A stretch of DNA of 64,000 bases, taken from positions 1,289 through 65,288 of the forward strand of contig VFKE01000091.1 in assembly GCA_009885695.1 (NCBI GenBank). Direction: 5' to 3'. Shown piece by piece: positions 1 to 34,464 of this stretch. The position numbers were made by a program, and so were the translations under genes. The notes beneath the pieces are model-generated. The model was not told the DNA's origin and made no database searches. It saw only the letters and a program-made list of their open reading frames with translations. Within the stretch, counting starts at the first letter, position 1. The number at the start of each line of letters is the position of its first letter. This stretch comes from Verrucomicrobiota bacterium. GTDB taxonomy: Bacteria; Verrucomicrobiota; Verrucomicrobiia; Verrucomicrobiales; Verrucomicrobiaceae.

Positions 1-1556
1 TGTGACAGCGGGGATGCTTCGATGTAGACGTTATTATGCTCGGGAGAAAAACGATGCAGCTCACGCTCCATTTCCCTGCCGGTCAGCAACCGTAAATAAG
101 ACGCCTCGTCAACATAGGGCACCAGTTCCGGCTGGGTCTCGAGAATGGCATCTGCCGTGGTCAGCAGGTCTTCCGTCAGTCCCATGGCTTTTTGGAGACG
201 ATAGGAGCGTCGCAAGACCTCCTGGTGCATGATCTGGTTCGAGGGCGGGAAATTAATCAGGGCCTGGAGCGCCAAGTGAAAACGTTCCAGCCGTTCCGCC
301 TGATCGGCCACGCGAACCAGTCCGAAGGGGTCCTTCTTGTTCCGTACGTAGGTCAGCGCGACCGCCAGATGGCTGTCAATTTCCTCAAGTGGATCACCCA
401 TGCCATTGGCGCATATGGCCTTCATCAGGGCGGCTTCTTCGATTCCAACTGGCAGCGAGTGCCGCATCAGCAGTGTGGAAAAGGAGTTCCAGTCTTTTTT
501 GATGATCAGAGCATCGCCAAATGCCAGAAACAGATCGCGTGACTTGAGTACCTCGGCCTTGGGTTCCACTGTCGTCAATATCGGTTCACCTTTTTCACGT
601 GAACCGTCTGTCTTCGTGTTTCCATTTTCACTCAAGCCCTGCAGAATTCTATCCGCCTGACCCATGTCGGCCAGCCAGGTAAAATATTCCGTGCAATCCT
701 CAGGACGTTTGCCTGCAATGCGCTGCGATTCTTCCATGACCAGTTCATCAGCCAGCGCGGGCTGCTGTCTTGCGCATGCTGCCAGGATGGCAAGCCGGTC
801 GGTGCTTTTAATGCCGGAATTTGATGAAATGATTGCCCGGGCTTCCATTATTTCGGAGCCAGACAAGGGCTGGGTTGACAGTGCCAGCATGGCCTTCGAG
901 GCCATTTTGCCGCCACCGCGGCTTAGTTCCCAGAGTGTGCGCCGGGCCTCCTGGCGAATCTCGTTGAAGATTGAATTCAGCTGCATTTTGGCGAGCCTGG
1001 TTCTGGCCTTTGGATCATCAGGCGATTTTTCCAGCGCGAACCTCAAGAGTTCTTCTGATTCTTGTTCACGACCTTCGATCATTAGCAGGTCGGCTTCGAT
1101 TTCGAGGCTCCCCGGACGCTGCCGCACATCGGCGGGGAGACTCTCCAGCACATGGCGCGCCGCCGACGCATTGGCCGTTTTCACCAGTGCCGCCGCGAGT
1201 TTGACGCTGTCTTCCGCCGTGGCCGATGGATGGTTGGCGACTTTCCGCCAGAGTACGGCTGCATCAGAAGCCCGTGCTGGAAGTTCATCCAGTCTTTGCG
1301 CGATCTCACGCAAGATGCCAGGCTCCTCCGGAGCCATCTGCCAGGCTTTTAGCAGCAACGCGATGCCCTGATCGGTCTGTCCGTTGTCCAGCAAACGACT
1401 GGCCTCCACGCAATAACTCCGGGCCTGTCCCAGGGTCCACCAGGCGGCAATCCCCCGCGCCGCCTTCACGATCACCAGCAGCGCGATGACCAGCAGGATG
1501 CCCAGCAAGGCCGTCTTGGCCCAGCGGGCGGCCCGTCTCGATATCTTTCGAGGCAT
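1..1556 (-). CDS. membrane-anchored TPR-like alpha-helical repeat protein; C-terminus runs off the left window edge
   Basis: Absent from the ORF track because no stop codon lies in the window. Manual minus-strand translation from the ATG at 1556..1554 gives MPRKISRRAARWAKTALLGILLVIALLVIVKAARG..., a basic N-terminus plus one TM helix. A helix-rich frame (LLKAWQMAPEEPGILREIAQRLDEL...) then stays open to the edge. The + strand ORFs here are low-complexity shadow frames. Confidence 0.65.
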   Translation of the reverse strand, partial: MPRKISRRAARWAKTALLGILLVIALLVIVKAARGIAAWWTLGQARSYCVEASRLLDNGQTDQGIALLLKAWQMAPEEPGILREIAQRLDELPARASDAAVLWRKVANHPSATAEDSVKLAAALVKTANASAARHVLESLPADVRQRPGSLEIEADLLMIEGREQESEELLRFALEKSPDDPKARTRLAKMQLNSIFNEIRQEARRTLWELSRGGGKMASKAMLALSTQPLSGSEIMEARAIISSNSGIKSTDRLAILAACARQQPALADELVMEESQRIAGKRPEDCTEYFTWLADMGQADRILQGLSENGNTKTDGSREKGEPILTTVEPKAEVLKSRDLFLAFGDALIIKKDWNSFSTLLMRHSLPVGIEEAALMKAICANGMGDPLEEIDSHLAVALTYVRNKKDPFGLVRVADQAERLERFHLALQALINFPPSNQIMHQEVLRRSYRLQKAMGLTEDLLTTADAILETQPELVPYVDEASYLRLLTGREMERELHRFSPEHNNVYIEASPLS

Positions 1557-1588
1557 GATGTTTGTTTCGGAGGCCATGAATGCGCTGG

Positions 1589-3259
1589 TTATGGATTGAT
1601 CGAATTGTCTCCCTCAAGTTCCAGGACAAGTCTGAACCCGACATCTGGAAACGCGTTGCCGTCTTCGACACGTTCTTCGGAATCCACCCGCAGCTTGCTG
1701 AGGTCCGTGGATTTCCAAGATCCGCCGAGATAAATCCGGTGGCTACCGAGATCACCGCCGATATCGGCGCACCATTCGGCGGCATTCCCGGCGAGCTCGT
1801 AAAAGCCGAGCGCATTGGACGGGAAGCTCTTCACCGCCATTCTTTCCGGCTGGGCAGATCCGGGCAGCAGGCTGAGGTTGATGTTGATTCGATTTGGCGG
1901 GGGTGGCCAGTCGGATCCCCACGGGTATGCCCGCTGTTTCCCCGCCGGATCATTTTCCGAAGCTGCGCGCACCCACTCTGATTTGAATGGCAGCCGATAG
2001 GCGGCACTTTGGGGAAGTGTCCCTTGCGTCCGTTCCCGCTGGGTCAGCCAGCGGCAGAAGACAACCGCATCGACCCACGAAACACCGACGTAGGGATGTT
2101 CCAAGTCCGATCGTAATTGAGGGTCCAGTGTTGATAAATCTCCGGCCGAAAAGACAAAAGCCTTGTAATCCTTTGCCCGAACTTCGTGTTCTCCCATGAG
2201 CACCTTGGTCCCCGGAAGCGGCAGCAGTTTCAAGCCCAGAGAATTGACAAAGGCCCGCCCTGGCGCGGCCACCGACGTTTCACCTTTGTCCTGGGTGCCC
2301 TGCAAACGCCGTTCCATCATGGCTTGCTTTACTTCATCCTGGGAGACCACCGCCTTGCTCATGAGACGATCCCGCTCTTCTTTTTTCTCAGCGGTTATGT
2401 TGCTTTCAAACTCGGACTTCGTGTCACTGTCCTCCAGAACACAGCGGAAGCCGATGCCGGGCACCCGGGTCTCCGCCTCGACCGTCAACCGGTAGGCCGG
2501 ATTCATGCTGTCTTTGCGCCAATACATCCAGGAAGAACCCCGCAGCGTTCCCGACAATACTTCGCCCGCCGCAGGATCGTACGTCCACTCCCATGCGTTC
2601 CCGCCGAGATCATAAATGCCGTCCACGGTTGGCTTGAAGCGACCGACCGGCGCCGTGAATTCGAAACCGTCGCCTTGAGAACCCTCAATCCGCGCCCGGT
2701 TGTAATTTCCCGCGTCTGATGGCGGCGGCCAGGCGGTTCCCCAAAAAAATGGCTGCGGAACCGTGGCCGCAGCCTGCGTCGGCTTATTGCCTGTGTCCAC
2801 GAGAACGGCCGCCGCATCCCATTCCGCGTTCGTGGGAAGACGATAGCTTTGCGTGTCCTTGAGCAGCCCTGATTCGCGCTCCTTCTCCGTCAGCCAGTCG
2901 CAGAAGTCCATCGCATCCTCCAGCATCACATTCACAACCGGATGCGAGCCATCCTGGGGAAAGTCCGGCCGGTGCTCCCATTTCACATTGGCGGAAGTGA
3001 GAAGGGCGTTCCAATCCGACACCCTGGTTTCCCATACGGAGAACCGGACATCCGTTCCTTTGACACTGTGAAACACCATGCCCAGGCTGTTGCGAAATTC
3101 ATCAGCAGCCGCTCCGCCGGGAGTCGCGCTGAGAAGAACGGCCCCGATCATCCCGCAAGCGATCCTCCGCCAGAGTAAACCGAGGCGCTGGCTGGGGTGG
3201 CGTGGGCAAGGAATCATTAAAGGACTCGACAGGGATGTTTTCGTCACATTCACTTTCAT
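1589..3259 (-). CDS. secreted protein with two tandem FGE-sulfatase (SUMF1/EgtB/PvdO family) domains
   Basis: 556-aa ORF with a hydrophobic N-terminal signal-like segment. It has two copies of the FGE-type signature: NSLGM.F..V, W....YC.WL, YRLPT..EW, GN..EW, GGSW, GFRCV/GFRLV. It starts 11 nt after the TpsA stop. Confidence 0.8.
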   Translation of the reverse strand: MKVNVTKTSLSSPLMIPCPRHPSQRLGLLWRRIACGMIGAVLLSATPGGAAADEFRNSLGMVFHSVKGTDVRFSVWETRVSDWNALLTSANVKWEHRPDFPQDGSHPVVNVMLEDAMDFCDWLTEKERESGLLKDTQSYRLPTNAEWDAAAVLVDTGNKPTQAAATVPQPFFWGTAWPPPSDAGNYNRARIEGSQGDGFEFTAPVGRFKPTVDGIYDLGGNAWEWTYDPAAGEVLSGTLRGSSWMYWRKDSMNPAYRLTVEAETRVPGIGFRCVLEDSDTKSEFESNITAEKKEERDRLMSKAVVSQDEVKQAMMERRLQGTQDKGETSVAAPGRAFVNSLGLKLLPLPGTKVLMGEHEVRAKDYKAFVFSAGDLSTLDPQLRSDLEHPYVGVSWVDAVVFCRWLTQRERTQGTLPQSAAYRLPFKSEWVRAASENDPAGKQRAYPWGSDWPPPPNRININLSLLPGSAQPERMAVKSFPSNALGFYELAGNAAEWCADIGGDLGSHRIYLGGSWKSTDLSKLRVDSEERVEDGNAFPDVGFRLVLELEGDNSINP

Positions 3260-3270
3260 TCCGATGGCGT

Positions 3271-6200
3271 TCAGAGTTGCTTGCGACGTTTTTTCTCTTC
3301 GTCATTTTCATCGGCAGGATCACTTCCGCCATAACCGAGCACTTCGACGGTGATCATCGACGGAGTCTCCGCGGGCGTCTCAGCAGTTGTGGGGGTGCTT
3401 TGTTTCATGGCATCCGCCGCAGCACTGGTGCTGGCACCAGCGGCGTTGCCGGCTGCCGTCAGTCCACCGATGTTCGGCGCGCTGACCACGGGTGCCGTAG
3501 GCGTGCCACTGCTGGCGCCGCTGACGGCGATATTACTGGCGTTGAGCACGGCGGTGGCGGCGATGTTCAGGTTCCCAGTGGCGCGAATGCCGGCATCGCC
3601 GGCGTCAACGACGCCAGTCGGGGCGATCAGATCGACGTTGCCTGGCTCCACGCCGGCCACGGTGGCCAGGACGCCGATGCCACCTCCGGTGGCCAGACCC
3701 GCCAAGTCGGTTTTCACATCGGCGCTTTGGGGATCAATCAAAACGCGGGTGGGCGGCGCGGACGCCACGGTTTTTGAGGATGCACCCGCAGCGATGTCGC
3801 CCGCCGACGACCAGATCACAATGTCACCTCCCCGCAGCGTGAAGATACGGGAGATGCCGAGGTTCACGCTGTCGTTCGTGAAAATGTTGATGCTGCCACC
3901 GGATTCGGTGATGATGCCAGGCGGAGCCAGCGAGCTTCCAGTGTCGGTGGTCTGAAGCGTGAGTCCACCGCCAGGCGCCAGGAGGTTGATGCTTCCGCCG
4001 CTCCTGGTGCGGATGTCGCGCGACTGGGTGACGATGTTTCCCTGGCCCGGATTCGGGAAGAGGGTGGCGATGGCGGCGAAGCCTGTCTCGTAGCCCCCGA
4101 TGCCGGTGGTTTGATTGCGACCCGCATCCCGCAGCACCAGATAAAAGACTTCGAGCGCGATGCGATGTTGCTCATCCTCCGGGAGAGACGCAAAGGAAGA
4201 CGTGGTCAGACCGGGATAAGTCTTAGCGAGCTCTGTTAGATAAGCCGCTCCTTGCGGTCCGCTCACATATTGCGTGATGAAGCTGTCAAAATCAAAGGCC
4301 CCACCATCCAGCCCGCCTGCGCCGCCCAAGCCAGCCCCGGCGATGATGGCCGCCCCCTCGAACGGCAGATAGGGATTGCGACCGTTGCCGATGCTGGTGA
4401 TGCCTACGCCGGTGCCGTCGGCATTGCCCGCCAGCGCGCCCAGATCGAGGTTTCGGCCCGCGAGAACTTCGAGCGTGCCGGGCCCGTTGATCTGGATGTC
4501 GCCGGCATTGATCGTGTCCGATCCGCTCAGGACGTTGCCCGGCGCGCGGGCGGCGACGCGCAAGGGCGAGTTGGAATTGGAGGCGATGATATCTCGGCCG
4601 GATGCTACGACAGTCACATCATCCTCCGCCACGTTTTGCAGGTAGAACTCGATGTCGGTGATGTCGTTCCCGCTGATGATTCGCGATTCTTTTCCGGAGA
4701 ACAAGGTGAGGCCTGAAATGTCACCGCTGCCGGCATAGATGCGCAGCGGCTCGGTGTCGCCGGCATGGAGCAGCCCTTGGGTATGGAGCGCCTGTTTCGT
4801 TTGAATGACCGCCGCGCTTCCGGTGGTGGAGCCGGTTTCGGCGAACAGGCTGTCGATGCGCGAGAGGAAGGTTAAGCCGAGCGAGCTGGTTGAGGACGAT
4901 CTCGCCGCCAGGGAAACCCCGACGAGCGACTGATAGGCGAAGGGCGATGTGATGCCTGAAACTGCGGACGGGCTGGCATCAGAGAGGTTGATTCTTCCTG
5001 ATATCCACACATTGACGGTCGAACTGTTGATGGTGGCGGTGCCGTTGTGCTGAAGCGCGTTGAAGGCACCTGCCGCAAGGAGATCGGCGGTGCCGGTGGG
5101 TGACGGTGAGAGATTGATACTGCCCACGAGATTGATATCGCCCGAGAAAGCCGTGGCGCGCAAGGTCGCCGGCATCAGTGTGGCCACCGTGTTGAATGCC
5201 GTGAGATTGTCTTCGGACAGCCGCAGCCAGGGCTGGGAGTTGGAGGCCGTCACGTTCGCGCCGGAAGTCACAAGAAGATGCTCCCGCTGCATGAATGCCA
5301 GCAGGGTCGGGGTGGTAACACCGCTGCTGTTCGTTGCCGGCAGGGTGACGCTCTCCCGGAACGTCACTGAGCCGCCCAGGGATGAGACGTTGACGAAGCT
5401 TGTTGGCGCGTAGGTGGAGAAATAAGTCTTGTACCAATAGGTGTTGCTGTAACCTTGTGGCAGCAGGAAGGGATTGGCCACCGGCCCCAGCAGCAGATCG
5501 CCCCGGGCGCTGACGTTGAAGCCACCTTTGCCCAAGAACAAGGTCGTGGGCAGCCAGGTCTCTGGCGCGAGCGGCGCACTGCTATTCAAGATTGTCAGGG
5601 ATGGTGAGCGTGTGGAGTTGGTGGTGATGCTGCCACCTGCATTCAGAGTGCCGGTGCCGCGTTCCACGTAATAGACGCCGCCATCAATGTTCCGGCCTGC
5701 CTGCACGGTGAGATCGCCCCCTCCAAATTCAACCAGGTTGGCCGCGTCAGGGGCGATGGCCGTGACTCCGCTCCTCCCGGTCATGCGGGCGTTGGTGGGC
5801 ACCAGTCCGTCAATGTTGGTCACATCTCGGCCGGCAATGAGCGTGACATTGCCGCCGCCCAGAGCACCGACGCCTTCAAAGAAATTGCTGAAATCCACCC
5901 ACCAGGATGTCGAGGCGACCTCTCCGAAACGCGATCTGCCGAACAGTCCGGTGACCGGATCCACATAGCCTCGCCGGTAAAGCCAGTTCATAGGCAGCTC
6001 CCGTTCGGAGTCGGCGATGAGGTTGTTGGAGATATCGCGCGTCTGGCGCAAGAGGTCAGCCCCGGCCGTGATGGATACGTTGCCGCCACCGAAGGTGTAT
6101 TGCGCGGAATAAGGTGGCAACTGCTGGTTCGCGCCGAGATTGCCCACGCTGGAGCCGGACATGCTCGGAACCGGCCGGTCGAAGGTCGAGCGCATCGTCA

Positions 6201-9200
6201 GATCGGGAACCTGGACTCCGACGGTGTAGATCGAGGCGAACTGGTTGAGCAGCTGCAAGTTTCGCCCCGCAGAAATATCGATGTCACCCGTGCCGGTGCG
6301 GATCACCTGGAAACGCCCGGTGCCGGCGTTGACTGCGGACGTGGTTGTCGCATTCGCGCCCGGAGAGCTTGCCGAATTCAAGCCGCCGTTCTTGCCAATG
6401 AGAAGGGATCCCTTGTTCGGGAAAGAGGTATTGAGAGCAGTGAGTGATTGGACACCGTGGATGTCCGCGGCCGTGAAATCGGCGCCGGTGGCGAAGCGGT
6501 AGGACCATGACTGAACGTTGACAGGCAGCGCGGCATTCGCAGTCAGCAGGCTTGAGTTGTAGGCGCTGGTGGTGAAGCCGTCGCTGATGGCGTTGAACAG
6601 GACAATGTCACCTCCCGCGCGCATCGTCAGCACGCCGGGCACGCTGTTGGCTCCGTAGCGGAATGTGGCCAGATTCCAGTCCACGGAGGCGGCCGAGCTT
6701 GAAGTGCCCAGCGTGAGGTCGCCCGTGCGGTTGATGACCTCGGCACCGGGCAGGACCACAGTAATGGGTGTCAGCGACAGCACGCTGGCATTCGCTGCCA
6801 GAAGGCTGTTGCGCAACGTGATGGCGTTGTTGCCGAAAGTGGTGAGCGAGGTGTTGATCGAGCTTTGGATAGCGGTCGTGATGTTGCCGCCCGCCGGGGT
6901 GAAAATCCGGTATCCCTCGACAGTGATCGCGGATGCCCCCGTAATGGTGCCGTTGATCGGGTTCACGGACAAGTTGGTGCCCGCCACGTTTTGCGGTGCG
7001 CGCAGGCGGAGCGTTCCGGTGAACTCGCCGGAAGCGGCGCTGCCGCCAAACGTGATGGTGCCTGCGCTGTTGAGCGTGACGGACTGGCCTTGCACAACGC
7101 CACTCACCACGTTGGCGGCCAAAGGAATGGTCCTCCCATCGACCAGCGTGATGGTGCCGGAACTGGTGGCTATGATCGTGTTGAAGCCGTTGGCGGTGGC
7201 CGGGAAGCTGATGCTGGTGCTGGCAGCGGCGGCGATTGTGCTGGCCGGGATGTTGCTGGCCACAGATAGATCGACGGCGGAACCTGACCGGATGTCGAGT
7301 ACCGCTCCCGGGCCGGCGCCGTAGGTGCCTCCGCTGAAGACGCTTGATCCGACCTCGAGGAACACCACGCCTCCTTTGCCGGCGTTGTTGAAATCCTGGG
7401 CGGCCACCGTGACCAGTGATCCGCTCTGGAGCACCACGTTCCTCCAGGCCACCAGGCTGATCTTGCCGCCCGTCGCGCCCGAGGCATTGATCTCGCCGGC
7501 CACATTGATGGAACCCTGGTCGGTGGAGAGGCTGAAGATCCGCGCAATCGTGGCGTTGGCCCCCGTGCCGGTCACGGTCACATCTCCGCTGCGCACGCGC
7601 AGGGTGCGCGATTGGGAGAATGACGCAGCGTTAAGCGTGTTGTTGAGTGTCGTGTAATCCGGGAGGCTGCCGACATCCAGCGAGAAGCTTCCATCCAAAC
7701 CTCCCGCACCGCCGCTGCCAGCCATGGTACCCGCAAGGTTGAAGGCGCCGGCTGAGGCATTGATCGTGATCCGGCCCGCGTTGCCGCCACCCGGCTGCGC
7801 GGCGACATTGAGGAAGCCGCCTGCGGCCACATCGACGTTGCCAGTGAGCGATGCCAGGGTGATCTGGCCGCCTTCGGTGTAACGCACCTGATCGAAGAAA
7901 GTTTGTGCCGTGCCTCCAGCGTTCAAAGTGCCTGAAACCGCAACACCGCCCGTGGCGCGCACGGTGAGGATGCCGCTCGGCAGCAGGATGTCACTGCTGA
8001 TGTTGATCGTGGTTCCGCTCAAGTCGATGCTGGCACCCAAGCCGCCGCTGACGGATGCCACGGTGCCCGGGGGTTTGAGAAGATTGAGCGCTCCTCCGGC
8101 GGTCAATGACTGGGTCGCGCCTTTTGCTCCCGTGAGCATTGGCGTGTTCGCCGTGAGTGCATTTTGTGCGGCCAATCCGCCCGCACCTTGCATGAGGATG
8201 CCGCCCGAGGCGTTGAGGATGACGGTGCTGAACTGGTCGATGTTGAGCTGGCCCTTGCCGATGGTGATGGTGCTGGCGTCGAAGACAAGCGTTCCCGAGG
8301 CTGCGATGACAGGGCCGGGCGAAGGCCGTCCCGGGCTGTTGTCGAGCAGGATGGTTGGCGCAGCCAACGTGACCGTGCCGCCGCCGTTGTTGAATCCGCG
8401 TATTTCGGCTGCGTGCAGCGCAAGGCTGCCGGTGGTGCTGAATCCTCCGGTGCCGTAAATATCAAAGGCGGAATAGCTCAGCAACGACAGTGATTGTGCG
8501 GACTGCAGGCCCGAGAGGACGTTACCCGTGAGGACGAGGCCGGGATCGGCCTGCAGGGATCCAGGGCTGGTGAGCTGCATGGAAATACGTCCGGCATCGA
8601 GCGTGATGGCCTGACCTATAAGGGCCGCCGTGGGGTCAATGGACATCCGCGCGGTGGAGTCGAGAATCAGACTGGCACCAGAGAGCGTCACGCCGGCACC
8701 GACACTCAGATTCGGCACGTTGGAGGAAGTGATGCCGGAGCGGACGATCTGCGCCGCTGGATCACTGCTGACGCGCAAGAGGACACCGTTCCCGCTGCCG
8801 GGCAGAGCAGCGTCCCCCAGCAGGAGTGTGTCCGCAGCATCGGACAGCGACCCGGTCTGCAGGACGGATGCGCCGGTGGCAAAGATGAGTTCCTGTGCGG
8901 ACACGAGGATGATTTCCGGTCCGGAGAGCGAGGTGCCTGCGTTATCGACGGTGATTTTGTTGGTGCGCACGTTGACGGTCGTGCTGTCGGTTCCGAAGCT
9001 GCGGGAACCGCCGATGAGCAGGCTGTCCGCGCCATAGCTGTTGAGCAGGTCGGAATCGAGCGTGAGCACCCCGGCACCACCGCTGGCACCGTTGCTGGAG
9101 ATCAAGATTTCAATCGGAGTGCTGATGTCGATATTGCCGCCGCGCCCGCTGCTTGCTCCCCGGGCCAGCACAGATCCCTGCACCGCCATGGCCTGGGTGG

Positions 9201-12200
9201 CTGAAAGCAGCAAATACCCCGCATCGACCGGCAGGCGCGGCGCTTTCTGGTCCAGCTTGATCGCGCTCTCACGCAGGAATGAATTGGCAAAGTAGTCCGC
9301 ATATTGCGAGCGTTGACGCACCACGGTGGAGGATGCGACCTCGAAGCGCGAGTAGATGGAGGGCACGGAGCGGGAGTTGTTGAGATCGTTGTAGCGGTAG
9401 CCGTTCACGAGCGATGAACCATCGGGCAGGTTGAAGGTGCCGATGGGAGAACCAGTCTGGGGCGTGACGAGAACCGCGTTGGGCAGCAGCGCGTAGCGCG
9501 CCGGCAGCAGGGTGTAAGTGCCGGCGGGCAGTCCCTGGCTGGCGTTGAGGAACACCCGGTCACCCACGGACAGACTGCTGTTCACATAGCCGCTGTCTCC
9601 GTCAAGATTTGTCGCCCCGGTCGTAGTGATGCTGAAGGGTGCGTAGGGCATGTAGTTAAATCCATATCCGGGAATCACCGCGAAGCTGGTTGATGAATCC
9701 AGGATGTCCTGGCTCCCGCCGTTGCCTCTGATCCACTGGTAGGCGTAGAGGTCGCCGCCGCCGCTGATATCGATGACCGAACCGGCTTCTGTCGTCAGCT
9801 TCTGCGCGGAGATGGTCACGGTCTTGGAGGGGCCGCCGCCTGCGGTAATGTCCAGACCCGTGGGGTCGATCCAAGCCTCGCCCGTGGGATTGATGCCATA
9901 GGGAATGATGATGCCCTGACCGGTGCGCGGATCCACTCCGGAGACGGAAGTGACGCTGCCGGCGGTGAGCGTGAGCTGCTTGGTCACGGGGACATTCTGC
10001 CCCGTGATTATATCCTTGGGCGCGGTGCCAGTGCCGTCCCAGCCGAGATTGATGCCGCCAAAGGGCGCGCGCAGCGTGCCGCCCTGCGTGATGAGTGAGC
10101 TGTAGATGTTGAGTGTGCCGCCGGCGGAAAGGGGAAGCGGCCGGACGCCGGATCCTTCGATGATGACAGAACCGGAGACCGTTCCTCCGCCCGGGTTGTA
10201 GTCATGGGCCACGATGGTGAATGGTGATGCGGTGACCGGATAAATCTGGCCAGCCCGCAGCAGCAAACTTCCGGCCACATCAAACGTGCCCTGCCCGCGG
10301 ATGTCACCCCCGTTGGCGATGAGCACCGTGACGCCGATGTTTTGCAATGAGAGATTGCCGACATCGATCAAGTCCGCCGTGACTGTCAGCCGGCCCGGGC
10401 CGAAAGTCGGGAGGAAATTGAACGGGTCGCTCAGCCCGTCGATGTAGGGTGGGGAATTCTGCAGCTCCAGGGGTTGCACTGGAGGTTCGAACGGCTTGCC
10501 CAGTGCGACGTAGGGCGCGGTGAGCTGGACATTGGAGTCCGCATAGATCACACCCCCGTCGATGGAACTGCTCGATGAAGGAACTCCGGCAACGATCGTG
10601 CGCCTGGCGTTGATGGTGACCGGCCCCTTGAATTCGAGCGTGCCGCCCAGCAGAAGGGAGTCGAAGCCGCCGCGCGAGAAATCATTGACGGCGAACTGGC
10701 CTCCACCCAGGATCGGCCCGCCCGTGGTATCGAGCACCGGCAGACCGATGCCGCTGCTGCCGGATGTGAAGCCGGGATCGCTCTGCGTGACCCGCAACGT
10801 GACGTCCGTCGGCTTCCTGTCCTGCGGTTGTGAAAGGAGGGGATAAAAACGGCCGGAGGAGATGGAAAGATTTCCGCCCAGTGCGGTGGGACCGCCTGCA
10901 TTTCCCAGGAGCGTGGCCGCCGTGAACAGTTGCTGCCCGCCCTTGAGGGTGATGGTGCCACCGCTGCTGTCCACGCGCAGCGGGACTGTGAACGCGGCAT
11001 AGAGCGGCAAGTTCACCCCGCTGGTCACGGGCACCAGGGTGGAGCCCAGCAGCGGAGCATTCATCGGCACGTTCAGGCCGAGGTAGGCCGGCGGCAGATC
11101 CAGAATACCGCTGGCACCCGAGACATCGAGTTTGGCACCGGATTCGGCGTAGATGTTTCCTGAGACGCTGATGGTGCCGCCGGGCAGGACATAACCTGTG
11201 CGGTGACCCCAGCGGTCGGGCAGCAGGACGACCTTGCCAGCCGTGGATAACAGGCTGCCGGCCGCGAGATGGACCGTGGTCAAGGCCCGGAGTTCCGCTT
11301 CCGGCCGGCTGGCAAACGTGGACAGCGAGTTCGATGACCCGGAGATGGAGATCGCACCGCCGGGCGCGATGATGGAGCCGAACACCGCCACCGTGTGCCC
11401 GCCCAAGGTCACGCTGCCGAGCGCATCCGTCTGGATGCGCGAGCCTGCGCCGATGATGATATCACCGCGCACCGTGAGCAGGCCGGTGAAATCATTTTGA
11501 ACGCCCGGTGCGCTGAGCGTGAGGCTCAACGGCGAGCGCAGACCCTCGGGCTTCAGCACCGGAACCATGACCACCCCGCCTGATTCCCATTCATGGGGCA
11601 GCGCGAGATAACTTTTCACTTCGGGTGCAATCACGGTTCCGGCAGCGACAGACACGCCGGGAATCATCTCATCGCTATTGCCGGTTGCTTCTCCCAGTCC
11701 GATCAGTGTGAAGCTGGCGAAGCCGCTTTCGCTGAAAAAGTCCGGCTTAAGCAGAAGCGCATTCACCGAGGGGGATGTTCCCCCGATCTGGATCACCGGG
11801 GCCTGCAAGGTGAGCGATCCGCCTTTGGCACCGGAGAAGCCGAGCAGCGTTCCGCCAAGTTTCAGGTGGCCTCCCAGCACGGATTTCAAATTCGGATCCT
11901 GTCCCGCCTTGATGCTGATGCTGCCCGCATCGCCGTAATTCATTTTCCCCGCTGTGCTCACTGCCACGCCGCCGGAAACATCAATGAGGCTGCCCTTGCT
12001 GAGATCGGCGTTGTAAGTGGTGATCGAGACCGCGCCTCCATTGGTCACCAGCGGGAGGCTGCCGGGTGATCGTGAGCTCATGCGGTCGTCGATGATGAGG
12101 CCCGCCGTGTTGATGGCACCTGATGAACCCAGGGCGAAGTTTCCCCGGTCGGCATTGGGCGGAGGCGTGACCGATCCGGCACTGGCCCTGAGTGAATCAG

Positions 12201-14907
12201 CGGTGGGAGGCGAGATGTTAAACACCGAAAGGTTCACCGTGCCGCCGGGCACGGTGATGCTGCCCTGCACGTCGATGTTGGCGCCGCTCATGGTGATCGA
12301 TCCCTTCGGCGTCACGATCAAGGCCGAGGAGCGCGGCACCTTGATGTCACCGTCGTAATTGGTCAGTGTAAAGATGCCAAAGCCCCGGACGCTGAACAGG
12401 TCGGGGTTTAAGATCACGTCCGCGATCCGGTCCGCGCGCAACGGCAAGGGGTTTCCCGCACCATCAAGGGCGAAGGGATCGGCGGGCGACAGACGCCCTT
12501 CCTCGAAGGAAACGGTTGGCGGTGTGGGGGAAAACTTGGGATAGGGCGTGGCTAGTTGCTGCGCTTCGAAGGCAATGGAGAGCGTTCCCGGATCGGGCGG
12601 ACTGCTGCGCTCGCGCGGACCCGCGACCGTGTTGCCAAAGAAATCGCCATCGAGGGCCATCGCACCCGCTTGCAGGTTGAGAATGCCGCCATCCGCGCCC
12701 TGCGTGTAGGGCTGCTCATAATGTTCGCCCAGCATCCACGGGATCTTGTAGGTATTGGTCACGCCCCAGCGCGGATGGCTTTCCGTGAAGGTGCCGGTGA
12801 AGATTCCCTGGTAGAGCCGGTTGGGCGTGGCATCGGCGATTTCGATGAGGTGGTTCGCGTAGAGCACGCGCGTTGTCGTCACATGGCCGCCTCCGAAGTT
12901 GATGAAGCCGCCGGAGACATCAACCAATGCGCCGGGCTGGAGCACGACCGAGTCGCCCGCGCTCAAGGTCACCGTGCCGCCGGCGGTGGTGAGTTCGCCG
13001 ACGGTGCGCTCGATCAGGCCGAGGTAGCCTGAGAGATCGGCCAGGGGCGTGCCATACCAGGTCCGGCCGTTGTAGGTTCCCGTTTTGCGGAGATCGACGG
13101 TGATGCTGGGGTTGCTGCCATCACCGGGACGAAAAATACTGGTGCGCTGCAAAGGTGAATCCGCGAATTCCGCACCGCGCAGCGTGACGCTGAGGATATA
13201 CTGCGAGAGCGGCGCGGCAATGTCGGTGGAGCCGGCCACATTGATCATGGCACCGCGGTCCAGATAAATCTGTCCGCCGGAATTCACAAAGGCGCTCCGT
13301 GCCGCGCTTGCTTCCTGCACATAATTCCAGACGCCCGCATTGGCCTTGAGTACCGCGCTCGGTGCCAGGATGACGGCGCCGGGGGCCAGGTAAATCGATT
13401 TACCCTGAAGATTGGCTTGCGAACGAAGGGATAATTGTGAGCCCACGGCCTTCTCGGTGCTGTCCCACTCAGGAAGAATCTGCGTCAGACTGGAAGGTCC
13501 GAGCATCACATCGCCCGCAGAGGTGTAATGAAACGGCGGCTCAGTGGATCTCACCGGGTCGTAAAAGACGTTGCGCAATGCACCGTAACTGGCGATCAGA
13601 TCGATGCGTCCGTTGAGAGATACCGAGGTGCTGCTGTTGATGGCGGCGAGCTGGTTGACGGTCTTGCCGGTGATCGTGACGTTGCCGCGCAAGGCTTCGA
13701 TGAGCCCGGTGTTCGTCGCCGTACCGGCATAGGGCGCGAGCACCGACGTGGGATCCGTCACCACGCCGACATAGACATCGAGTCCGCGCAAGCTCGGATC
13801 ACTTGAGCTATGGGCGTCAATTCCCACCTGCAAACCCGCTGCCAGAATGGTCTGGCCATCGAGCGTTGAAATGCTGCCGGCGTTCGTCACGTTGGCGCCC
13901 ACGAGCATGATTCTGCCGCCGACCTTGGCAGCAGACGTAGGTGCGGTCAGTTGTGCGCCGGGCTGGACAGTCACGTCGCCATAGCGTCCGCCGGGCGGTG
14001 GCGCAGGCGGAGTGAAAGCGGGCGTCGGGCCTTTCGATCCCGCCGGAATGGCCAGCGCGCTGAAGAGGAACTGCGCGTCCGGGTTGTTGAGCAGACCGCG
14101 GGTGATCAGGTTCTCGTTAAGGGGCAGGGACGAGGCCACCAGCGTGTGGGTGTTAACCTGGCTGCTGCCGCCGAAGATGATGCCGTTCTGGTTGATGACA
14201 TAGACCTGCCCGGAAGCCGTGATGGAACCGAGGATCTGCGAGGGCTGGCCGGAAGGATCGTTGACTTTATTGAAAGCCACCCACTGGCTAACATCTGCCC
14301 CGCCGTCGCTCTGATCAAATTTGAGGGTCGTGTTCTTGCCGATGTTGAACTTGCTCCAGTTGATCAGCGCCTGCTGGACGTTCTGCTTCACGGTCACCTG
14401 GGTTCCGCGGCCTCCGCTCCCTTGAGTGGGAGCGCTGGCTCCGGTGGCGCTGACAAACTGCAATCCACCCGGTGCCAGCCCGTCTGGCACATTGGGAAGT
14501 TGCAGTGCGGGATTGTTGGGATTGACGCCGAGGTTGTTGGCACCGGCCCGCGCCGCTGCTTGCGCGGCTGCCTGCATGGCCTTCACTGAATTGAGCGCCT
14601 GCGACGTGCGGGCCATGGCGTCCCTGGCATTGGACCGGGCTTGCGCGGCGGCGGCGGGATTGGTTCCGTATCCGGACGTGGGTCGTGCGACATTGGCCGG
14701 GGCGCCGCCCCGAAGGATGTCGCCTGCGCGGGATCCTGGCAGCAGGGCGCAAGCCAACAGAGCCGTTATGCCCGCGACCGCGGGCAATCGCGGCCACTTG
14801 GGCGGGAACGGCCTGCGATCCTGATGCGGGCTTATTTGATGGAAAAGCATCGGTATTGACCGAGAACTGGCGGCGGATTTTAGACGGGTTGGCCACCGGG
14901 AACACAA
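3271..14907 (-). CDS. giant two-partner-secretion exoprotein (TpsA, filamentous haemagglutinin family, PdtA-like), 3878 aa
   Basis: N-terminal TPS (haemagglutination activity) domain: ALINWSKFNIGKNTTLKFDQ...ILGSITASGQVYVINQNGIIFGGSSQVN. Thousands of residues of G/S/T/N/A-rich beta-helix-type repeats follow. The C-terminal module reads RGGDIVIWSSAGDIAAG...VDAGDAGIRATGNLNIAA...ITVEVLGYGG. An alternative start at 14850 (MLFHQ...) precedes the signal peptide LPAVAGITALLACALLPGSRA. Confidence 0.9.
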   Translation of the reverse strand: MCSRWPTRLKSAASSRSIPMLFHQISPHQDRRPFPPKWPRLPAVAGITALLACALLPGSRAGDILRGGAPANVARPTSGYGTNPAAAAQARSNARDAMARTSQALNSVKAMQAAAQAAARAGANNLGVNPNNPALQLPNVPDGLAPGGLQFVSATGASAPTQGSGGRGTQVTVKQNVQQALINWSKFNIGKNTTLKFDQSDGGADVSQWVAFNKVNDPSGQPSQILGSITASGQVYVINQNGIIFGGSSQVNTHTLVASSLPLNENLITRGLLNNPDAQFLFSALAIPAGSKGPTPAFTPPAPPPGGRYGDVTVQPGAQLTAPTSAAKVGGRIMLVGANVTNAGSISTLDGQTILAAGLQVGIDAHSSSDPSLRGLDVYVGVVTDPTSVLAPYAGTATNTGLIEALRGNVTITGKTVNQLAAINSSTSVSLNGRIDLIASYGALRNVFYDPVRSTEPPFHYTSAGDVMLGPSSLTQILPEWDSTEKAVGSQLSLRSQANLQGKSIYLAPGAVILAPSAVLKANAGVWNYVQEASAARSAFVNSGGQIYLDRGAMINVAGSTDIAAPLSQYILSVTLRGAEFADSPLQRTSIFRPGDGSNPSITVDLRKTGTYNGRTWYGTPLADLSGYLGLIERTVGELTTAGGTVTLSAGDSVVLQPGALVDVSGGFINFGGGHVTTTRVLYANHLIEIADATPNRLYQGIFTGTFTESHPRWGVTNTYKIPWMLGEHYEQPYTQGADGGILNLQAGAMALDGDFFGNTVAGPRERSSPPDPGTLSIAFEAQQLATPYPKFSPTPPTVSFEEGRLSPADPFALDGAGNPLPLRADRIADVILNPDLFSVRGFGIFTLTNYDGDIKVPRSSALIVTPKGSITMSGANIDVQGSITVPGGTVNLSVFNISPPTADSLRASAGSVTPPPNADRGNFALGSSGAINTAGLIIDDRMSSRSPGSLPLVTNGGAVSITTYNADLSKGSLIDVSGGVAVSTAGKMNYGDAGSISIKAGQDPNLKSVLGGHLKLGGTLLGFSGAKGGSLTLQAPVIQIGGTSPSVNALLLKPDFFSESGFASFTLIGLGEATGNSDEMIPGVSVAAGTVIAPEVKSYLALPHEWESGGVVMVPVLKPEGLRSPLSLTLSAPGVQNDFTGLLTVRGDIIIGAGSRIQTDALGSVTLGGHTVAVFGSIIAPGGAISISGSSNSLSTFASRPEAELRALTTVHLAAGSLLSTAGKVVLLPDRWGHRTGYVLPGGTISVSGNIYAESGAKLDVSGASGILDLPPAYLGLNVPMNAPLLGSTLVPVTSGVNLPLYAAFTVPLRVDSSGGTITLKGGQQLFTAATLLGNAGGPTALGGNLSISSGRFYPLLSQPQDRKPTDVTLRVTQSDPGFTSGSSGIGLPVLDTTGGPILGGGQFAVNDFSRGGFDSLLLGGTLEFKGPVTINARRTIVAGVPSSSSSIDGGVIYADSNVQLTAPYVALGKPFEPPVQPLELQNSPPYIDGLSDPFNFLPTFGPGRLTVTADLIDVGNLSLQNIGVTVLIANGGDIRGQGTFDVAGSLLLRAGQIYPVTASPFTIVAHDYNPGGGTVSGSVIIEGSGVRPLPLSAGGTLNIYSSLITQGGTLRAPFGGINLGWDGTGTAPKDIITGQNVPVTKQLTLTAGSVTSVSGVDPRTGQGIIIPYGINPTGEAWIDPTGLDITAGGGPSKTVTISAQKLTTEAGSVIDISGGGDLYAYQWIRGNGGSQDILDSSTSFAVIPGYGFNYMPYAPFSITTTGATNLDGDSGYVNSSLSVGDRVFLNASQGLPAGTYTLLPARYALLPNAVLVTPQTGSPIGTFNLPDGSSLVNGYRYNDLNNSRSVPSIYSRFEVASSTVVRQRSQYADYFANSFLRESAIKLDQKAPRLPVDAGYLLLSATQAMAVQGSVLARGASSGRGGNIDISTPIEILISSNGASGGAGVLTLDSDLLNSYGADSLLIGGSRSFGTDSTTVNVRTNKITVDNAGTSLSGPEIILVSAQELIFATGASVLQTGSLSDAADTLLLGDAALPGSGNGVLLRVSSDPAAQIVRSGITSSNVPNLSVGAGVTLSGASLILDSTARMSIDPTAALIGQAITLDAGRISMQLTSPGSLQADPGLVLTGNVLSGLQSAQSLSLLSYSAFDIYGTGGFSTTGSLALHAAEIRGFNNGGGTVTLAAPTILLDNSPGRPSPGPVIAASGTLVFDASTITIGKGQLNIDQFSTVILNASGGILMQGAGGLAAQNALTANTPMLTGAKGATQSLTAGGALNLLKPPGTVASVSGGLGASIDLSGTTINISSDILLPSGILTVRATGGVAVSGTLNAGGTAQTFFDQVRYTEGGQITLASLTGNVDVAAGGFLNVAAQPGGGNAGRITINASAGAFNLAGTMAGSGGAGGLDGSFSLDVGSLPDYTTLNNTLNAASFSQSRTLRVRSGDVTVTGTGANATIARIFSLSTDQGSINVAGEINASGATGGKISLVAWRNVVLQSGSLVTVAAQDFNNAGKGGVVFLEVGSSVFSGGTYGAGPGAVLDIRSGSAVDLSVASNIPASTIAAAASTSISFPATANGFNTIIATSSGTITLVDGRTIPLAANVVSGVVQGQSVTLNSAGTITFGGSAASGEFTGTLRLRAPQNVAGTNLSVNPINGTITGASAITVEGYRIFTPAGGNITTAIQSSINTSLTTFGNNAITLRNSLLAANASVLSLTPITVVLPGAEVINRTGDLTLGTSSSAASVDWNLATFRYGANSVPGVLTMRAGGDIVLFNAISDGFTTSAYNSSLLTANAALPVNVQSWSYRFATGADFTAADIHGVQSLTALNTSFPNKGSLLIGKNGGLNSASSPGANATTTSAVNAGTGRFQVIRTGTGDIDISAGRNLQLLNQFASIYTVGVQVPDLTMRSTFDRPVPSMSGSSVGNLGANQQLPPYSAQYTFGGGNVSITAGADLLRQTRDISNNLIADSERELPMNWLYRRGYVDPVTGLFGRSRFGEVASTSWWVDFSNFFEGVGALGGGNVTLIAGRDVTNIDGLVPTNARMTGRSGVTAIAPDAANLVEFGGGDLTVQAGRNIDGGVYYVERGTGTLNAGGSITTNSTRSPSLTILNSSAPLAPETWLPTTLFLGKGGFNVSARGDLLLGPVANPFLLPQGYSNTYWYKTYFSTYAPTSFVNVSSLGGSVTFRESVTLPATNSSGVTTPTLLAFMQREHLLVTSGANVTASNSQPWLRLSEDNLTAFNTVATLMPATLRATAFSGDINLVGSINLSPSPTGTADLLAAGAFNALQHNGTATINSSTVNVWISGRINLSDASPSAVSGITSPFAYQSLVGVSLAARSSSTSSLGLTFLSRIDSLFAETGSTTGSAAVIQTKQALHTQGLLHAGDTEPLRIYAGSGDISGLTLFSGKESRIISGNDITDIEFYLQNVAEDDVTVVASGRDIIASNSNSPLRVAARAPGNVLSGSDTINAGDIQINGPGTLEVLAGRNLDLGALAGNADGTGVGITSIGNGRNPYLPFEGAAIIAGAGLGGAGGLDGGAFDFDSFITQYVSGPQGAAYLTELAKTYPGLTTSSFASLPEDEQHRIALEVFYLVLRDAGRNQTTGIGGYETGFAAIATLFPNPGQGNIVTQSRDIRTRSGGSINLLAPGGGLTLQTTDTGSSLAPPGIITESGGSINIFTNDSVNLGISRIFTLRGGDIVIWSSAGDIAAGASSKTVASAPPTRVLIDPQSADVKTDLAGLATGGGIGVLATVAGVEPGNVDLIAPTGVVDAGDAGIRATGNLNIAATAVLNASNIAVSGASSGTPTAPVVSAPNIGGLTAAGNAAGASTSAAADAMKQSTPTTAETPAETPSMITVEVLGYGGSDPADENDEEKKRRKQL

Positions 14908-14943
14908 TCGAAAGGTGACGATTTCGACACACTATATTTTGTA

Positions 14944-15029
14944 GCAAGGGCGTGTTGCCCTTGCGATGCCGCCGGGGTAGAAGCGACGCCCTCGTCGCTT
15001 CGTCCGGTGCTGGCGACGCCCTCGTCGCC
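14944..15029. repeat. cluster of three GC-rich hairpins just upstream of the TpsA start
   Basis: GCAAGGGC-gtgtt-GCCCTTGC (14944..14964), AGCGACG-ccct-CGTCGCT (14982..14999) and GGCGACG-ccct-CGTCGCC (15012..15029). The GTAGCAAGGGC core recurs at 19142. Confidence 0.7.
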
Positions 15030-15129: not shown

Positions 15130-15933
15130 CTACTTTGCTTGCTTCAACTGCTCCTCGTAGGCTTTCCGCGCGATTTCGTTGTGATAGGTCATGTAATAGG
15201 TTGCACCCATCAGGGATCTCATCATTTCGTCAGCATTGCGCTGGGCTCGGGTCCAGCGGGCGTGATACTGGGGATCCGTGGGATTCTGATGGGGACCGCC
15301 GATATCTTTGACGAAATTCTGGCTGATCTGGTTGATGGTCTGTTCTTGGGCCGGGGTCGGCGGTGGCAGAGGGCTGCGGGCATTGCTCACGGCGCGGCCT
15401 TTGCCGCCGGGTGGCGTAGCGGCCGGATTCTGAAACACCAGCGGATATTGGATGCGCACCTGCTTGGCCCTTGCTGCCAGGCTGCCGGGAACCGTGGCTT
15501 CTGAGATTTGGTTCTTCTTCGGATCTTGCAACAGGCCCGCCAGCACCGTGCTCTGTTCCTGTTCGAGCTTTCGGATTTCCGAGGGCAGCGGATTATGTCC
15601 TGCGCTCGACCGCAACTGGCGCTGTTTGTCGGCATACAATTCGCTGACCTCGCCCTGAACGATCTGGCGGATGGTCGGCTCCGGGCAGCCGATGCTGCGG
15701 AGGTTGGTGATGAAGGTGGCGTAATCGTCCGCCTCCATCTGGTTCCAATGGAAAGGGGTGGCCTTGGGTGATTCGGGGCGCGCGGGCGCGGCAGCTGCCG
15801 GGGAAATCTTGGATGCCGCAACGGTTGGCGCACTGACCGGGCGATTCTGTGCAGGCCGGAAAATTACCAAGCCAGCTACGAGAGCAAGGAGTACTCCATT
15901 CAGGGCCAAAGATGCGGTGAGCTGTTTTTTCAT
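15130..15933 (-). CDS. hypothetical membrane-anchored, Pro-rich protein
   Basis: 267-aa ORF with an N-terminal TM/signal segment (MKKQLTASLALNGVLLALVAGLVIF) and protein-like composition. I recognise no domain. Confidence 0.6.
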   Translation of the reverse strand: MKKQLTASLALNGVLLALVAGLVIFRPAQNRPVSAPTVAASKISPAAAAPARPESPKATPFHWNQMEADDYATFITNLRSIGCPEPTIRQIVQGEVSELYADKQRQLRSSAGHNPLPSEIRKLEQEQSTVLAGLLQDPKKNQISEATVPGSLAARAKQVRIQYPLVFQNPAATPPGGKGRAVSNARSPLPPPTPAQEQTINQISQNFVKDIGGPHQNPTDPQYHARWTRAQRNADEMMRSLMGATYYMTYHNEIARKAYEEQLKQAK

Positions 15934-16032
15934 GATGGGAGGCGGGTAGTTCTTATTATAAAGAAAAACTGGCGGGAGTCTTGCAACTCCCGCCAGTTCA
16001 CTTGGATAATCCTAAAACGAAGGGGATTCGAC

Positions 16033-18063: not shown

Positions 18064-18897
18064 TCAGGCGGCACGGACTGGACGGCGGCGGCGCAGCAGC
18101 AGCGAGCCAAGGCCGAATGCGAGGAGCAGAGCGCGGCTGGGTTCAGGGACGGCGGCAGGACCGTTGTTGCCATAGCTGAGCACGCCCGTGTTGCTGATGG
18201 TGAAGGTGCCTTCGTAGGTGCCAGTGCCGGAGCCGGGTACCATGCGGAACAGATCCAGGGCGGCCGTAGCCAGACCGGCGTCAAGCGGGCCATCAAGAGG
18301 GCCTTGGAGACCGTTGAAGTAGCCGAAGCTCGTGCTGCCGGGATTCTGGGCTGCCCAGTTGATCGTGTTCCCGACGGTTGGCTGCCTGAGGACGTTGGTG
18401 TTTATACCGACCGTCGAGATTGTGGCGGAGTTATACTCAGCTCCCAAGGTCTGGATTAACGCCCCTGGGGTGCCTTGGGTTCCGCTGGCAGCCCGTGCAT
18501 AGCCTGTTCCGATCGTGTCAAAGACCGCTTCGGGTTTGCTGGCATAAAGCGTGTTGAGGATGTCGCCGTTTATGCCGAGGTTTTGGTTCACCCGGCCCAC
18601 AAGACCCCAATTTATTTGCGAGAGTTTCGTGGCGTTGGTGGCCCAGTCGCTGCCGAATACTGCCGAGAGATCCGCGTTGATGCTGCCGACGGACAATGAG
18701 AGGATATCGGACACCTGGTTCTTGAAGAACGCGGCAGAGCCGAGATTGACCACCATAGCGGTCGTGATGCTAGGATCGGTAGAGCGGAAGCCGAGGAGCA
18801 AGTCCCCGCCTGCGTAAGTAGCGGCCGCTGCCGGAGCAGCGGATATGGCGAGCGCAGCGAAAACTGCGGCCATCGATTTTTTGATTTGGTTTTTCAT
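18064..18897 (-). CDS. PEP-CTERM sorting-domain secreted protein
   Basis: C-terminus VPEPSRALLLAFGLGSLLLRRRRP is a PEP motif, TM helix and Arg cluster. The plausible start is MKNQIKKSMAAVFAALAISAAPAAA at 18897. The track ORF extends to 19206, but that extension covers hairpin repeats. Confidence 0.8.
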   Translation of the reverse strand: MKNQIKKSMAAVFAALAISAAPAAAATYAGGDLLLGFRSTDPSITTAMVVNLGSAAFFKNQVSDILSLSVGSINADLSAVFGSDWATNATKLSQINWGLVGRVNQNLGINGDILNTLYASKPEAVFDTIGTGYARAASGTQGTPGALIQTLGAEYNSATISTVGINTNVLRQPTVGNTINWAAQNPGSTSFGYFNGLQGPLDGPLDAGLATAALDLFRMVPGSGTGTYEGTFTISNTGVLSYGNNGPAAVPEPSRALLLAFGLGSLLLRRRRPVRAA

Positions 18898-19144
18898 GTG
18901 GTTTATTTGGGGTGGATGAGGTGGGGTTTTTGGGGATGCGGATCGGTTGACTTGTGAGGATGACTTTGTTTTTTGCTGTTGAATTGAAATCATCGGAGCA
19001 GTGATTCCGCTTCCGATGTGCATCATCCAAGCAGGCAGTCGTAATGAGGTCGAGTCGTTTGCGGTTACGTTATCGTCACTTACGCCAGCCTCCGGGACCG
19101 GCCCCAGCACGGGGCGACGTCCATGTTCTGCGGCAGCCATCGTA

Positions 19145-19196
19145 GCAAGGGCATCCTGCCCTTGTCCAGGTGACGGCAAGGGCATCCTGCCCTTGC
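19145..19196. repeat. two tandem GCAAGGGC-atcct-GCCCTTGC hairpins
   Basis: CAAGGGC/GCCCTTG stems at 19146..19164 and 19176..19196. Same family as the hairpin at 14944. Confidence 0.7.
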
Positions 19197-19254
19197 TGCT
19201 TTTCAAGCCGGTAACTCAGCCATCATGGCTTAGTTATTTTTCAACAGGATGCCA

Positions 19255-19442: not shown

Positions 19443-19443
19443 T

Positions 19444-19917: not shown

Positions 19918-19920
19918 GGA

Positions 19921-34449: not shown

Positions 34450-34464
34450 TTCAATATTTTTCCA

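Follow-up and report, generated by a model that had tools for sequence, protein, structure and literature searches.

Which proteins serve the giant exoprotein of the two-partner secretion (TPS) type that is encoded at one end of a Verrucomicrobiota DNA stretch of 64,000 nucleotides (assembly GCA_009885695.1, contig VFKE01000091.1, positions 1,289 to 65,288; this whole stretch is called the window below), and is the secreted protein encoded just behind it, which has two domains of the formylglycine-generating enzyme (FGE) fold, one of them? A first-pass annotation of the sequence had placed the exoprotein (TpsA), the double FGE-fold protein and a membrane protein with tetratricopeptide repeats (TPR) in one transcription unit, instead of a transporter gene (TpsB), and had offered either an oxidative or a binding role for the FGE-fold protein. 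By comparison of genomes, the present analysis places the FGE and TPR genes at the margin of a conserved Verrucomicrobial envelope cluster that has a two-partner secretion system at its core. The pair is tentatively read, with slightly less than an even chance of this being right, as a non-enzymatic periplasmic scaffold that would serve the TPS secretion cluster, a reading that draws on gene order, protein sequence and analogy.

The TpsA, FGE and TPR genes

As annotated at first, the three genes are contiguous on the minus strand:
1..1577, minus strand: membrane-anchored TPR protein, the conserved partner of the FGE-fold protein; the gene leaves the window and its last ~75 aa lie beyond the window start
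1589..3259, minus strand: double FGE-fold protein of 556 aa, the open reading frame (ORF) following 11 nt after the TpsA stop
3271..14907, minus strand: TpsA-type exoprotein of 3878 aa counted from a TTG codon (ORF and domain search)

The 556-aa protein is matched by PF03781 (FGE-sulfatase) over two stretches (E 8e-51) and carries a Sec-type leader, without a membrane anchor and without a lipobox before the hydrophobic core. Its AlphaFold2 (AF2) model (pLDDT 80.7) agrees with the two tandem FGE-like domains of the first reading of the sequence; they span aa ~52-277 and ~335-548, with a helical linker between them (aa 278-320). The public gene call (P0001) starts 14 codons later and gives 542 aa. 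From the Sec leader, we infer that the protein acts in the periplasm. The catalytic Cu(I)-binding cysteine pair of FGE (C336/C341 in the human enzyme) sits between the motifs GGS[YW] and GFRC. In the window protein, the stretch that separates GGSW from GFR is MYWRKDSMNPAYRLTVEAETRVPGI for the first domain and KSTDLSKLRVDSEERVEDGNAFPDV for the second, with no cysteine in either; across 28 members of the family, the same stretch holds 0-1 Cys in domain 1 and 0 Cys in domain 2 in 27 of the 28. The catalytic pair, whose retention had been proposed as a check, is therefore absent from both domains, and because of this absence the protein cannot make formylglycine and has no Cu(I) site. Judged by these residues, the FGE-like protein of the window is shown to be a catalytically dead pseudo-enzyme. 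It belongs to a large double-FGE family of the Verrucomicrobiaceae (1478 matches at E<=1e-10), and the labels 'Formylglycine-generating enzyme' and 'SUMF1/EgtB/PvdO nonheme iron enzyme' carried by these Verrucomicrobial proteins of ~550 aa are almost certainly wrong functionally.

The closest solved structure is the Cys-less paralogue pFGE/SUMF2 when a single sequence is used and PorK/GldK (E 1e-22) when the family profile is used. A Foldseek search with the model returned FGE, pFGE, CarF, PorK and PvdO, all at ~1e-10 and not told apart, and the human FGE mutant structures C336S and C341S are among the matches. The equivalog models of NCBIfam for GldK, PvdO, OvoA, SenA and EgtB all score far under their cut-offs, the best match being GldK (TIGR03525, 99.6 bits against a cut-off of 350). 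An identity as PvdO was rejected, since the score of its model is under the cut-off (NF051459, 62.7 bits against 500) and no pyoverdine genes are present in the window. A sulfoxide synthase of the EgtB/OvoA type was rejected as well, since the protein has no DinB domain, the carrier of the iron site in EgtB and OvoA, in addition to the low scores. A scan of the window with a regular expression found no ORF with a sulfatase signature.

Several proteins share the fold and the loss of the catalytic cysteines. In pFGE/SUMF2, PvdO and CarF the secretory or periplasmic compartment is shared too, but these have a single domain and ~270-300 aa each, their partners are different, and none is paired with a transmembrane (TM) TPR protein or a TPS locus. 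PorK, GldK and also GldJ belong to type IX secretion (the T9SS) and to gliding. PorK, with an FGE fold that lacks both catalytic cysteines, serves as a docking and structural hub of the T9SS ring; this system is driven by a MotAB/ExbBD-like motor and PorK is part of its periplasmic assembly (PMC12421860). By analogy, a structural use of the fold may apply here. The window protein is nevertheless not a member of this family, given its GldK score, and it differs in having two tandem FGE domains, no lipoprotein signal and none of the insertion domains of PorK; no PorN, PorL, PorM, Sov or Gld genes are among its neighbours in the window, and the phylum is a different one.

The third protein is TM-anchored, in line with its first description, and TPR-like. 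Its full length is 600 aa (P0241, start at 1577; an alternative ORF start lies at 1556), with a strongly basic N-side, one N-terminal TM helix and then an all-alpha TPR solenoid (Pfam TPR_19; AF2 pLDDT 84). The positive-inside rule would place its N-terminus inside at the inner membrane, with the solenoid facing the periplasm. It belongs to a discrete family, for which an exhaustive search of representatives gave 153 clusters at 50% identity (E<=1e-30), nearly all of 570-600 aa; a word-indexed homologue search gave only 4 proteins, probably because of repetitive words.

The likelier start of TpsA is an ATG at 14850, 19 codons into the ORF counted from TTG. The protein consists of a hydrophobic leader (aa ~40-60), a TPS domain (aa 166-430), a long body and a conserved C-terminal module. 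The TPS domain is supported by PF05860 (E 8.9e-15, 55.7 bits against a cut-off of 33.5) and by TIGR01901 (65 bits against 29.1), and DUF3739 is found at the C-terminal end (aa 3693-3804, E 2e-30). The body is rich in Gly, Ala, Ser and Thr, has no further Pfam match and is assumed to form a beta-helical fibre. In TpsA proteins, the C-terminus is normally the variable end. Here, the C-terminal 479 aa (3271-4710, minus strand; DUF3739 and flanks) are 55-70% identical over the Verrucomicrobiota; one match to this region carries the label Rhodopila. No mention of DUF3739 in bacteria was found in the literature searched. The only cysteines, C2 and C53, are both in the leader, so that the mature part is Cys-free, and a regular-expression scan of TpsA did not find the C/SxPxR motif (C.P.R or S.P.R). 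For these two reasons TpsA cannot be an FGE substrate, and the oxidative modification of TpsA suggested at first loses both its enzyme and its target residue.

Upstream of TpsA, the minus strand carries the following features:
15130..15933, minus strand: signal-anchored protein of 267 aa (u267), encoded immediately 5' of TpsA and seen again close to TpsA in other loci
15966..15999, minus strand: strong terminator-like hairpin with a 15-bp stem and a T-run, 3' of the 641-aa gene and upstream of u267
16033..17958, minus strand: secreted Thr/Gly/Ala-rich protein of 641 aa, of no known family
18064..19206, minus strand: protein with a PEP-CTERM sorting signal, a conserved TpsA neighbour; its real start is probably near 18897

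The gap between the TpsA stop and the FGE start is 11 nt, and that between FGE and TPR is 11 nt or 32 nt, depending on whether TPR starts at 1577 or at 1556. A scan of the strand found no terminator-like site between the three genes, and the hairpin 15999..15966 is the only strong site of this kind on the strand. The small gaps and the missing terminator make the co-transcription of TpsA, FGE and TPR, claimed at first, very probable; the likely transcription unit, as predicted from the sequence, is u267-TpsA-FGE-TPR, with its upstream limit at the hairpin. A further hairpin (2751-2774, minus strand; 8-bp GC-rich stem and T7 run) falls within the FGE ORF, where the loop region of domain 1 is encoded, and is probably due to chance, because the count of terminator-like sites equals the expectation from shuffled sequence. 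Two ORFs overlap the 5' end of TpsA (14315-15073, minus strand, 252 aa; 14426-14824, plus strand, 132 aa); their high-GC, Arg/Pro/Ser-rich translations look spurious. The module made of the PEP-CTERM, 641-aa and 267-aa genes (15130-19206) hints at a link of the TPS fibre to exosortase-sorted proteins.

The TpsB cluster and the conservation of gene order

The statement that the FGE and TPR genes stand in place of a TpsB does not hold. Indeed, the window encodes a TpsB on the plus strand, at the head of a cluster:
32794..34449, plus strand: TpsB, Omp85-type, with POTRA_2 and ShlB barrel (PF03865, 70 bits, cut-off 22.7; PF08479, 48 bits, cut-off 24)
34465..36336, plus strand: ExbB/MotA-type proton-channel protein with N-terminal DUF2341 and Laminin_G_3 (88-89% identical in L005 and L006)
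36339..36746, plus strand: ExbD
36776..37498, plus strand: TonB-like protein with a TonB_2 C-terminal domain
37517..39448, plus strand: outer-membrane protein of the Porin_5 family
39451..40212, plus strand: u253, 253 aa, with no assigned function; in relatives it stands directly 5' of TpsA or of FGE-TPR

The proteins of this cluster, from TpsB to u253 (32794-40212), are 79-95% identical to those of the loci L005 and L006. The closest relative found is L005 (GCA_031400955.1), whose FGE protein is 76-77% identical to that of the window, while the FGE protein of L006 is only 43% identical despite the similarity of the cluster. In L005, all genes lie on one strand in the order TpsA (3904 aa), FGE, TPR, a 248-aa gene, TpsB, ExbB, ExbD, TonB and Porin_5, TpsB being 1.6 kb downstream of the TPR gene and 85% identical to its counterpart in the window; in L006, TpsB is directly 3' of TpsA on the same strand. 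In the window, TpsA and TpsB are ~18 kb apart and on opposite strands. A blastn comparison of L005 with the window gave two colinear blocks in opposite orientation (1-13136 = 12829-28 and 14944-21574 = 32716-39291), which indicates that a single inversion parted TpsA-FGE-TPR from TpsB in the window. The TpsB of the window is probably the partner of its TpsA.

A TPS domain behind the leader and an Omp85-type POTRA/ShlB transporter are both present, which places the two proteins among the TpsA and TpsB proteins. With FHA/FhaC, ShlA/ShlB and HxuA/HxuB(/HxuC), the locus shares the N-terminal TPS domain, the POTRA_2/ShlB partner, the giant repetitive Gly/Ala/Ser/Thr-rich exoprotein and, as seen in relatives, the clustering of TpsA with TpsB. 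It differs from them by the distant TpsB on the opposite strand after the inversion, by the operon of TpsB with ExbB(DUF2341/LamG)-ExbD-TonB-Porin_5, by a TpsA C-terminus (DUF3739) that is conserved across the phylum (53-70%) instead of being a variable effector, and by the pseudo-FGE and TM-TPR accessories. Neither accessory is described for TPS in the literature searched, where no link of TPS to an FGE-fold protein was found, in agreement with the first-pass annotation, and nothing relevant on filamentous hemagglutinin in Verrucomicrobia. In the usual description, type Vb secretion is minimal, needs just two components and has neither periplasmic factors dedicated to it nor a source of energy in the outer membrane; a TPS pair that works together with a TonB-dependent component has a precedent in HxuCBA. 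An operon that joins a TPS transporter to a Ton-like motor of its own and to a porin appears to be undescribed, and DUF2341-ExbB proteins have been noted only as uncharacterised (PMC12505986). This Ton-linked TPS cluster and an undescribed conserved accessory module are what remains new relative to known TPS, now that the enzymatic claim and the claim of a missing TpsB have fallen.

Contact-dependent inhibition loci (CdiB-CdiA-CdiI) also combine a giant TpsA-type protein with close downstream genes on the same strand. The downstream genes here code for envelope proteins of 556 aa and 600 aa and not for a small cytoplasmic immunity protein. A toxin/immunity system was rejected on this ground, and also since the Pfam search of TpsA gave only TPS and DUF3739 and no toxin domain (it did not cover the VENN/pretoxin motif itself) and the C-terminus is conserved and not polymorphic.

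Gene order was compared from the side of the FGE gene in 13 distinct double-FGE loci, linkage being defined as a distance within 10 kb. A scan of contigs with the FGE family alignment picked up generic FGE motifs and gave 80 loci, mostly unrelated and from other phyla, with L010 and L011 as the only family members. In 11 of these 13 loci, the next gene 3' of FGE is a TPR gene, with gaps that range in most loci from a 4-nt overlap (L170, L171 and the P0014 locus) up to 22 nt; on this gene order, FGE and TPR are shown to form a tightly coupled conserved pair. A distance tree splits the double-FGE family into the subfamilies A and B. Subfamily A (>=41% identical to the window protein) includes six loci out of nine that are linked to TpsA or TpsB or to Porin_5-u253, and these six show five different arrangements:
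window and L005: FGE-TPR directly after TpsA
L170: TpsA, PEP-CTERM-like gene, u641-like gene, 264-aa gene, FGE-TPR
L006: TpsA-TpsB-ExbB-ExbD-TonB-Porin_5-u253-FGE-TPR
P0014 locus: Porin_5-u253-FGE-TPR, the linkage being to the cluster genes Porin_5 and u253
L007: TpsB divergent from a block resembling type II secretion system (T2SS) genes E/F/G, which ends in FGE-TPR

Linked loci are found on all deep branches of subfamily A, at 41-50% identity, with the unlinked loci L003, L171 and L172 interspersed. In L007, the same-strand block (1109-7260) contains MshEN/T2SSE, T2SSF, T2SSG and two N_methyl pseudopilins, with FGE-TPR as its last genes, and the TpsB orthologue is divergent from it.

From the side of TpsA, a metagenome scan with an alignment of the C-terminal region gave 80 TpsA loci (53-66% identity, proteins mostly of ~3,700-3,900 aa), which were searched by tblastn and profile hidden Markov models; 62 of them extend for 2 kb or more on the downstream side of TpsA and are informative. 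PEP-CTERM, 641-aa or 267-aa genes, which are upstream of TpsA in the window, occur in 30 of the 62 in either orientation. A full-length TPR-family gene without FGE directly follows TpsA in five of the 62 (the match between L100 and the TPR protein of L005 is end to end, E 3e-33), and in a sixth locus, L111, a weaker TPR match (E 1e-33) adjoins TpsA in convergent orientation; other genes are downstream in 26 of the 62. Where upstream DNA is visible, u253 is directly 5' of TpsA in 7 metagenome loci (6 distinct), and we infer TpsB-ExbB-ExbD-TonB-Porin_5-u253-TpsA as the common order. The comparison of loci shows that direct TpsA-FGE adjacency is, as far as gene order tells, specific to the lineage of the window, and that FGE-TPR, or TPR alone, recurs at varying positions in or around the conserved TPS/Ton-like/porin cluster.

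Possible roles of the FGE-TPR pair

In the lineage of the window, the pair landed directly behind TpsA, with which it is very probably co-transcribed, and a single inversion later moved the TpsA-FGE-TPR block ~18 kb from TpsB. If the pair is a periplasmic scaffold for the TPS cluster, the double FGE-fold protein, docked on the membrane-anchored TPR protein, would act as a scaffold or holder. While TpsA is exported or anchored, this scaffold would bind an unfolded or periplasm-retained part of that protein of 3.9k residues, or else the TpsB/Ton-like apparatus. It does not generate formylglycine and would parallel PorK, whose FGE fold has found a second use as docking hub in the ring of type IX secretion. 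A binding role, which had been offered only as the alternative to an oxidative one, is the reading favoured by the data. A functional link of FGE-TPR to the TPS cluster seems about as probable as its absence, and a specific chaperone or docking mechanism is doubtful.

A number of observations weigh against the scaffold. Within 10 kb, an FGE-domain gene is found in none of the 80 independent TpsA loci, so most TpsA orthologues work without the FGE protein; the order TpsA-FGE-TPR, whose survey in relatives had been suggested, is kept in L005 and in none of these loci, and the proposal of a dedicated TpsA accessory is not sustained. Five of the 11 FGE-TPR pairs (L002, L003, L171, L172 and L173) are not linked to TPS genes. 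GCA_031400955.1 itself holds both the TpsA-linked pair of L005 and an unlinked one (L172, contig JANNQW010000303.1, 10001-13368) with an FGE protein 43-44% identical to the TpsA-linked FGE and with genes for an acyl carrier protein, a ketosynthase, an epimerase and a nucleotidyl-transferase around it; this second pair makes FGE-TPR a multi-copy module. In subfamily B (L001, L002 and L173; FGE 37-41% identical to the window protein), there is no TPS link, and the three loci share instead an upstream partner of ~490 aa (460-500 aa, free of Pfam domains, 38-46% identical among L001 8277-9785, L002 7008-8387 and L173 7449-8924). The Foldseek search with the TPR model gave TPR superhelices of a generic kind (those of APC/C, IFT and others) and no functional lead, common descent may account for part of the neighbourhood kept in related Verrucomicrobiaceae, and the evidence is all genomic. 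As the main alternative, the pair may be a coincidental neighbour, an independent periplasmic module with its own client or ligand that a rearrangement put behind TpsA in one lineage and whose co-transcription would have no bearing on TPS. For this reading, the absence of FGE from the 80 loci, the unlinked pairs, the second pair in the genome of L005 and the proneness of the region to rearrangement (the inversion, and insertion sequence elements beside L171, where an IS481 transposase is nearby) all speak. This is rather unlikely in our view, given that six of the nine loci of subfamily A, in five arrangements and at 41-50% identity, lie within 10 kb of the supercluster, a target of ~25 kb in genomes of several megabases, and that five more lineages have the TPR homologue on its own right behind TpsA, with the weaker convergent match in a sixth.

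That the FGE-like protein oxidatively modifies TpsA in the periplasm, to formylglycine or similar, is suggested by its FGE-sulfatase fold and by its adjacency to and co-transcription with TpsA, but is hardly credible for a protein without the cysteine pair and hence without a Cu(I) site, without a DinB domain, with EgtB, OvoA and SenA scores far under the cut-offs and with its nearest likeness to the non-FGE members of the pFGE, PorK and PvdO type, next to a TpsA that is Cys-free when mature and lacks C/SxPxR, in a window without a sulfatase signature. Service to PEP-CTERM/exosortase surface biogenesis, with a PrsT-like TPR protein, FGE domains that bind polysaccharide and a proximity to TpsA that comes from PEP-CTERM neighbours, would fit the PEP-CTERM protein as a conserved TpsA neighbour (with the 641-aa and 267-aa genes in 30 of the 62 loci), the exosortase EpsH/EpsI gene that in L173 faces the TPR gene convergently, and PrsT (TIGR02917) as the best NCBIfam match of the TPR protein. 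It has a low probability: that match reaches only 23.4 bits against a cut-off of 312, on which an identity as PrsT, the TPR lipoprotein of XrtA/PEP-CTERM systems, was rejected, the exosortase adjacency occurs once only and in subfamily B, and in L006 and the P0014 locus the pair comes after Porin_5-u253 with no PEP-CTERM gene adjoining. It is just as improbable that the double FGE-fold protein leaves the cell for the surface or the medium and there joins the TpsA fibre as a lectin-like co-adhesin or a partner in target binding, its export being helped by the TPR protein. The Sec leader without a membrane anchor and the C-type-lectin-like FGE fold, used by surface lipoproteins such as the variable protein 1 of T. 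denticola (2y3c), would allow this, but there is neither a sign of outer-membrane translocation nor a lipobox, and the tight coupling to a periplasmic TPR protein anchored in the inner membrane suggests a periplasmic site.

The locus suggests that TPS is not minimal in one phylum, where a conserved cluster includes a Ton-like motor and a porin, and that one family adds a dedicated periplasmic pair, in which a TM-TPR protein goes with a catalytically dead protein of two tandem FGE folds. Should the pair indeed aid TpsA export or anchoring, TPS would gain its first specific periplasmic accessory of such a kind, and PorK would no longer be the one instance of an FGE fold turned into scaffolding of a secretion machine but the first of two. 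More speculatively, and with little likelihood, Verrucomicrobia might run a TPS secretion or anchoring coupled to the proton-motive force, in which an ExbB(DUF2341/LamG)-ExbD-TonB motor, Porin_5 and TpsB handle a DUF3739 fibre of ~3,800 residues; in the Verrucomicrobiaceae, the TPR protein and the tandem pseudo-FGE would be the adaptor from the inner-membrane motor to the outer-membrane translocon, the logic of PorLM-PorKN being reinvented independently.

Other genes and source of the window

The DNA of the window matched only DNA runs from freshwater-sediment metagenomes, and 0 RNA runs. The remaining features are:
23419-24483: PilT-like ATPase
25865-32074, minus strand: multi-TPR protein of 2069 aa with a signal peptide, divergent from TpsB
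40724-62159: housekeeping genes for rpoC, rpoB, EF-Tu, argininosuccinate synthase, a NuoG/formate-dehydrogenase-like molybdopterin oxidoreductase and a NuoF-like subunit

The housekeeping genes indicate a chromosomal context and not a mobile element. The 2069-aa multi-TPR gene has no counterpart between the TPR gene and TpsB in L005, and it owes its place in the window to the inversion.

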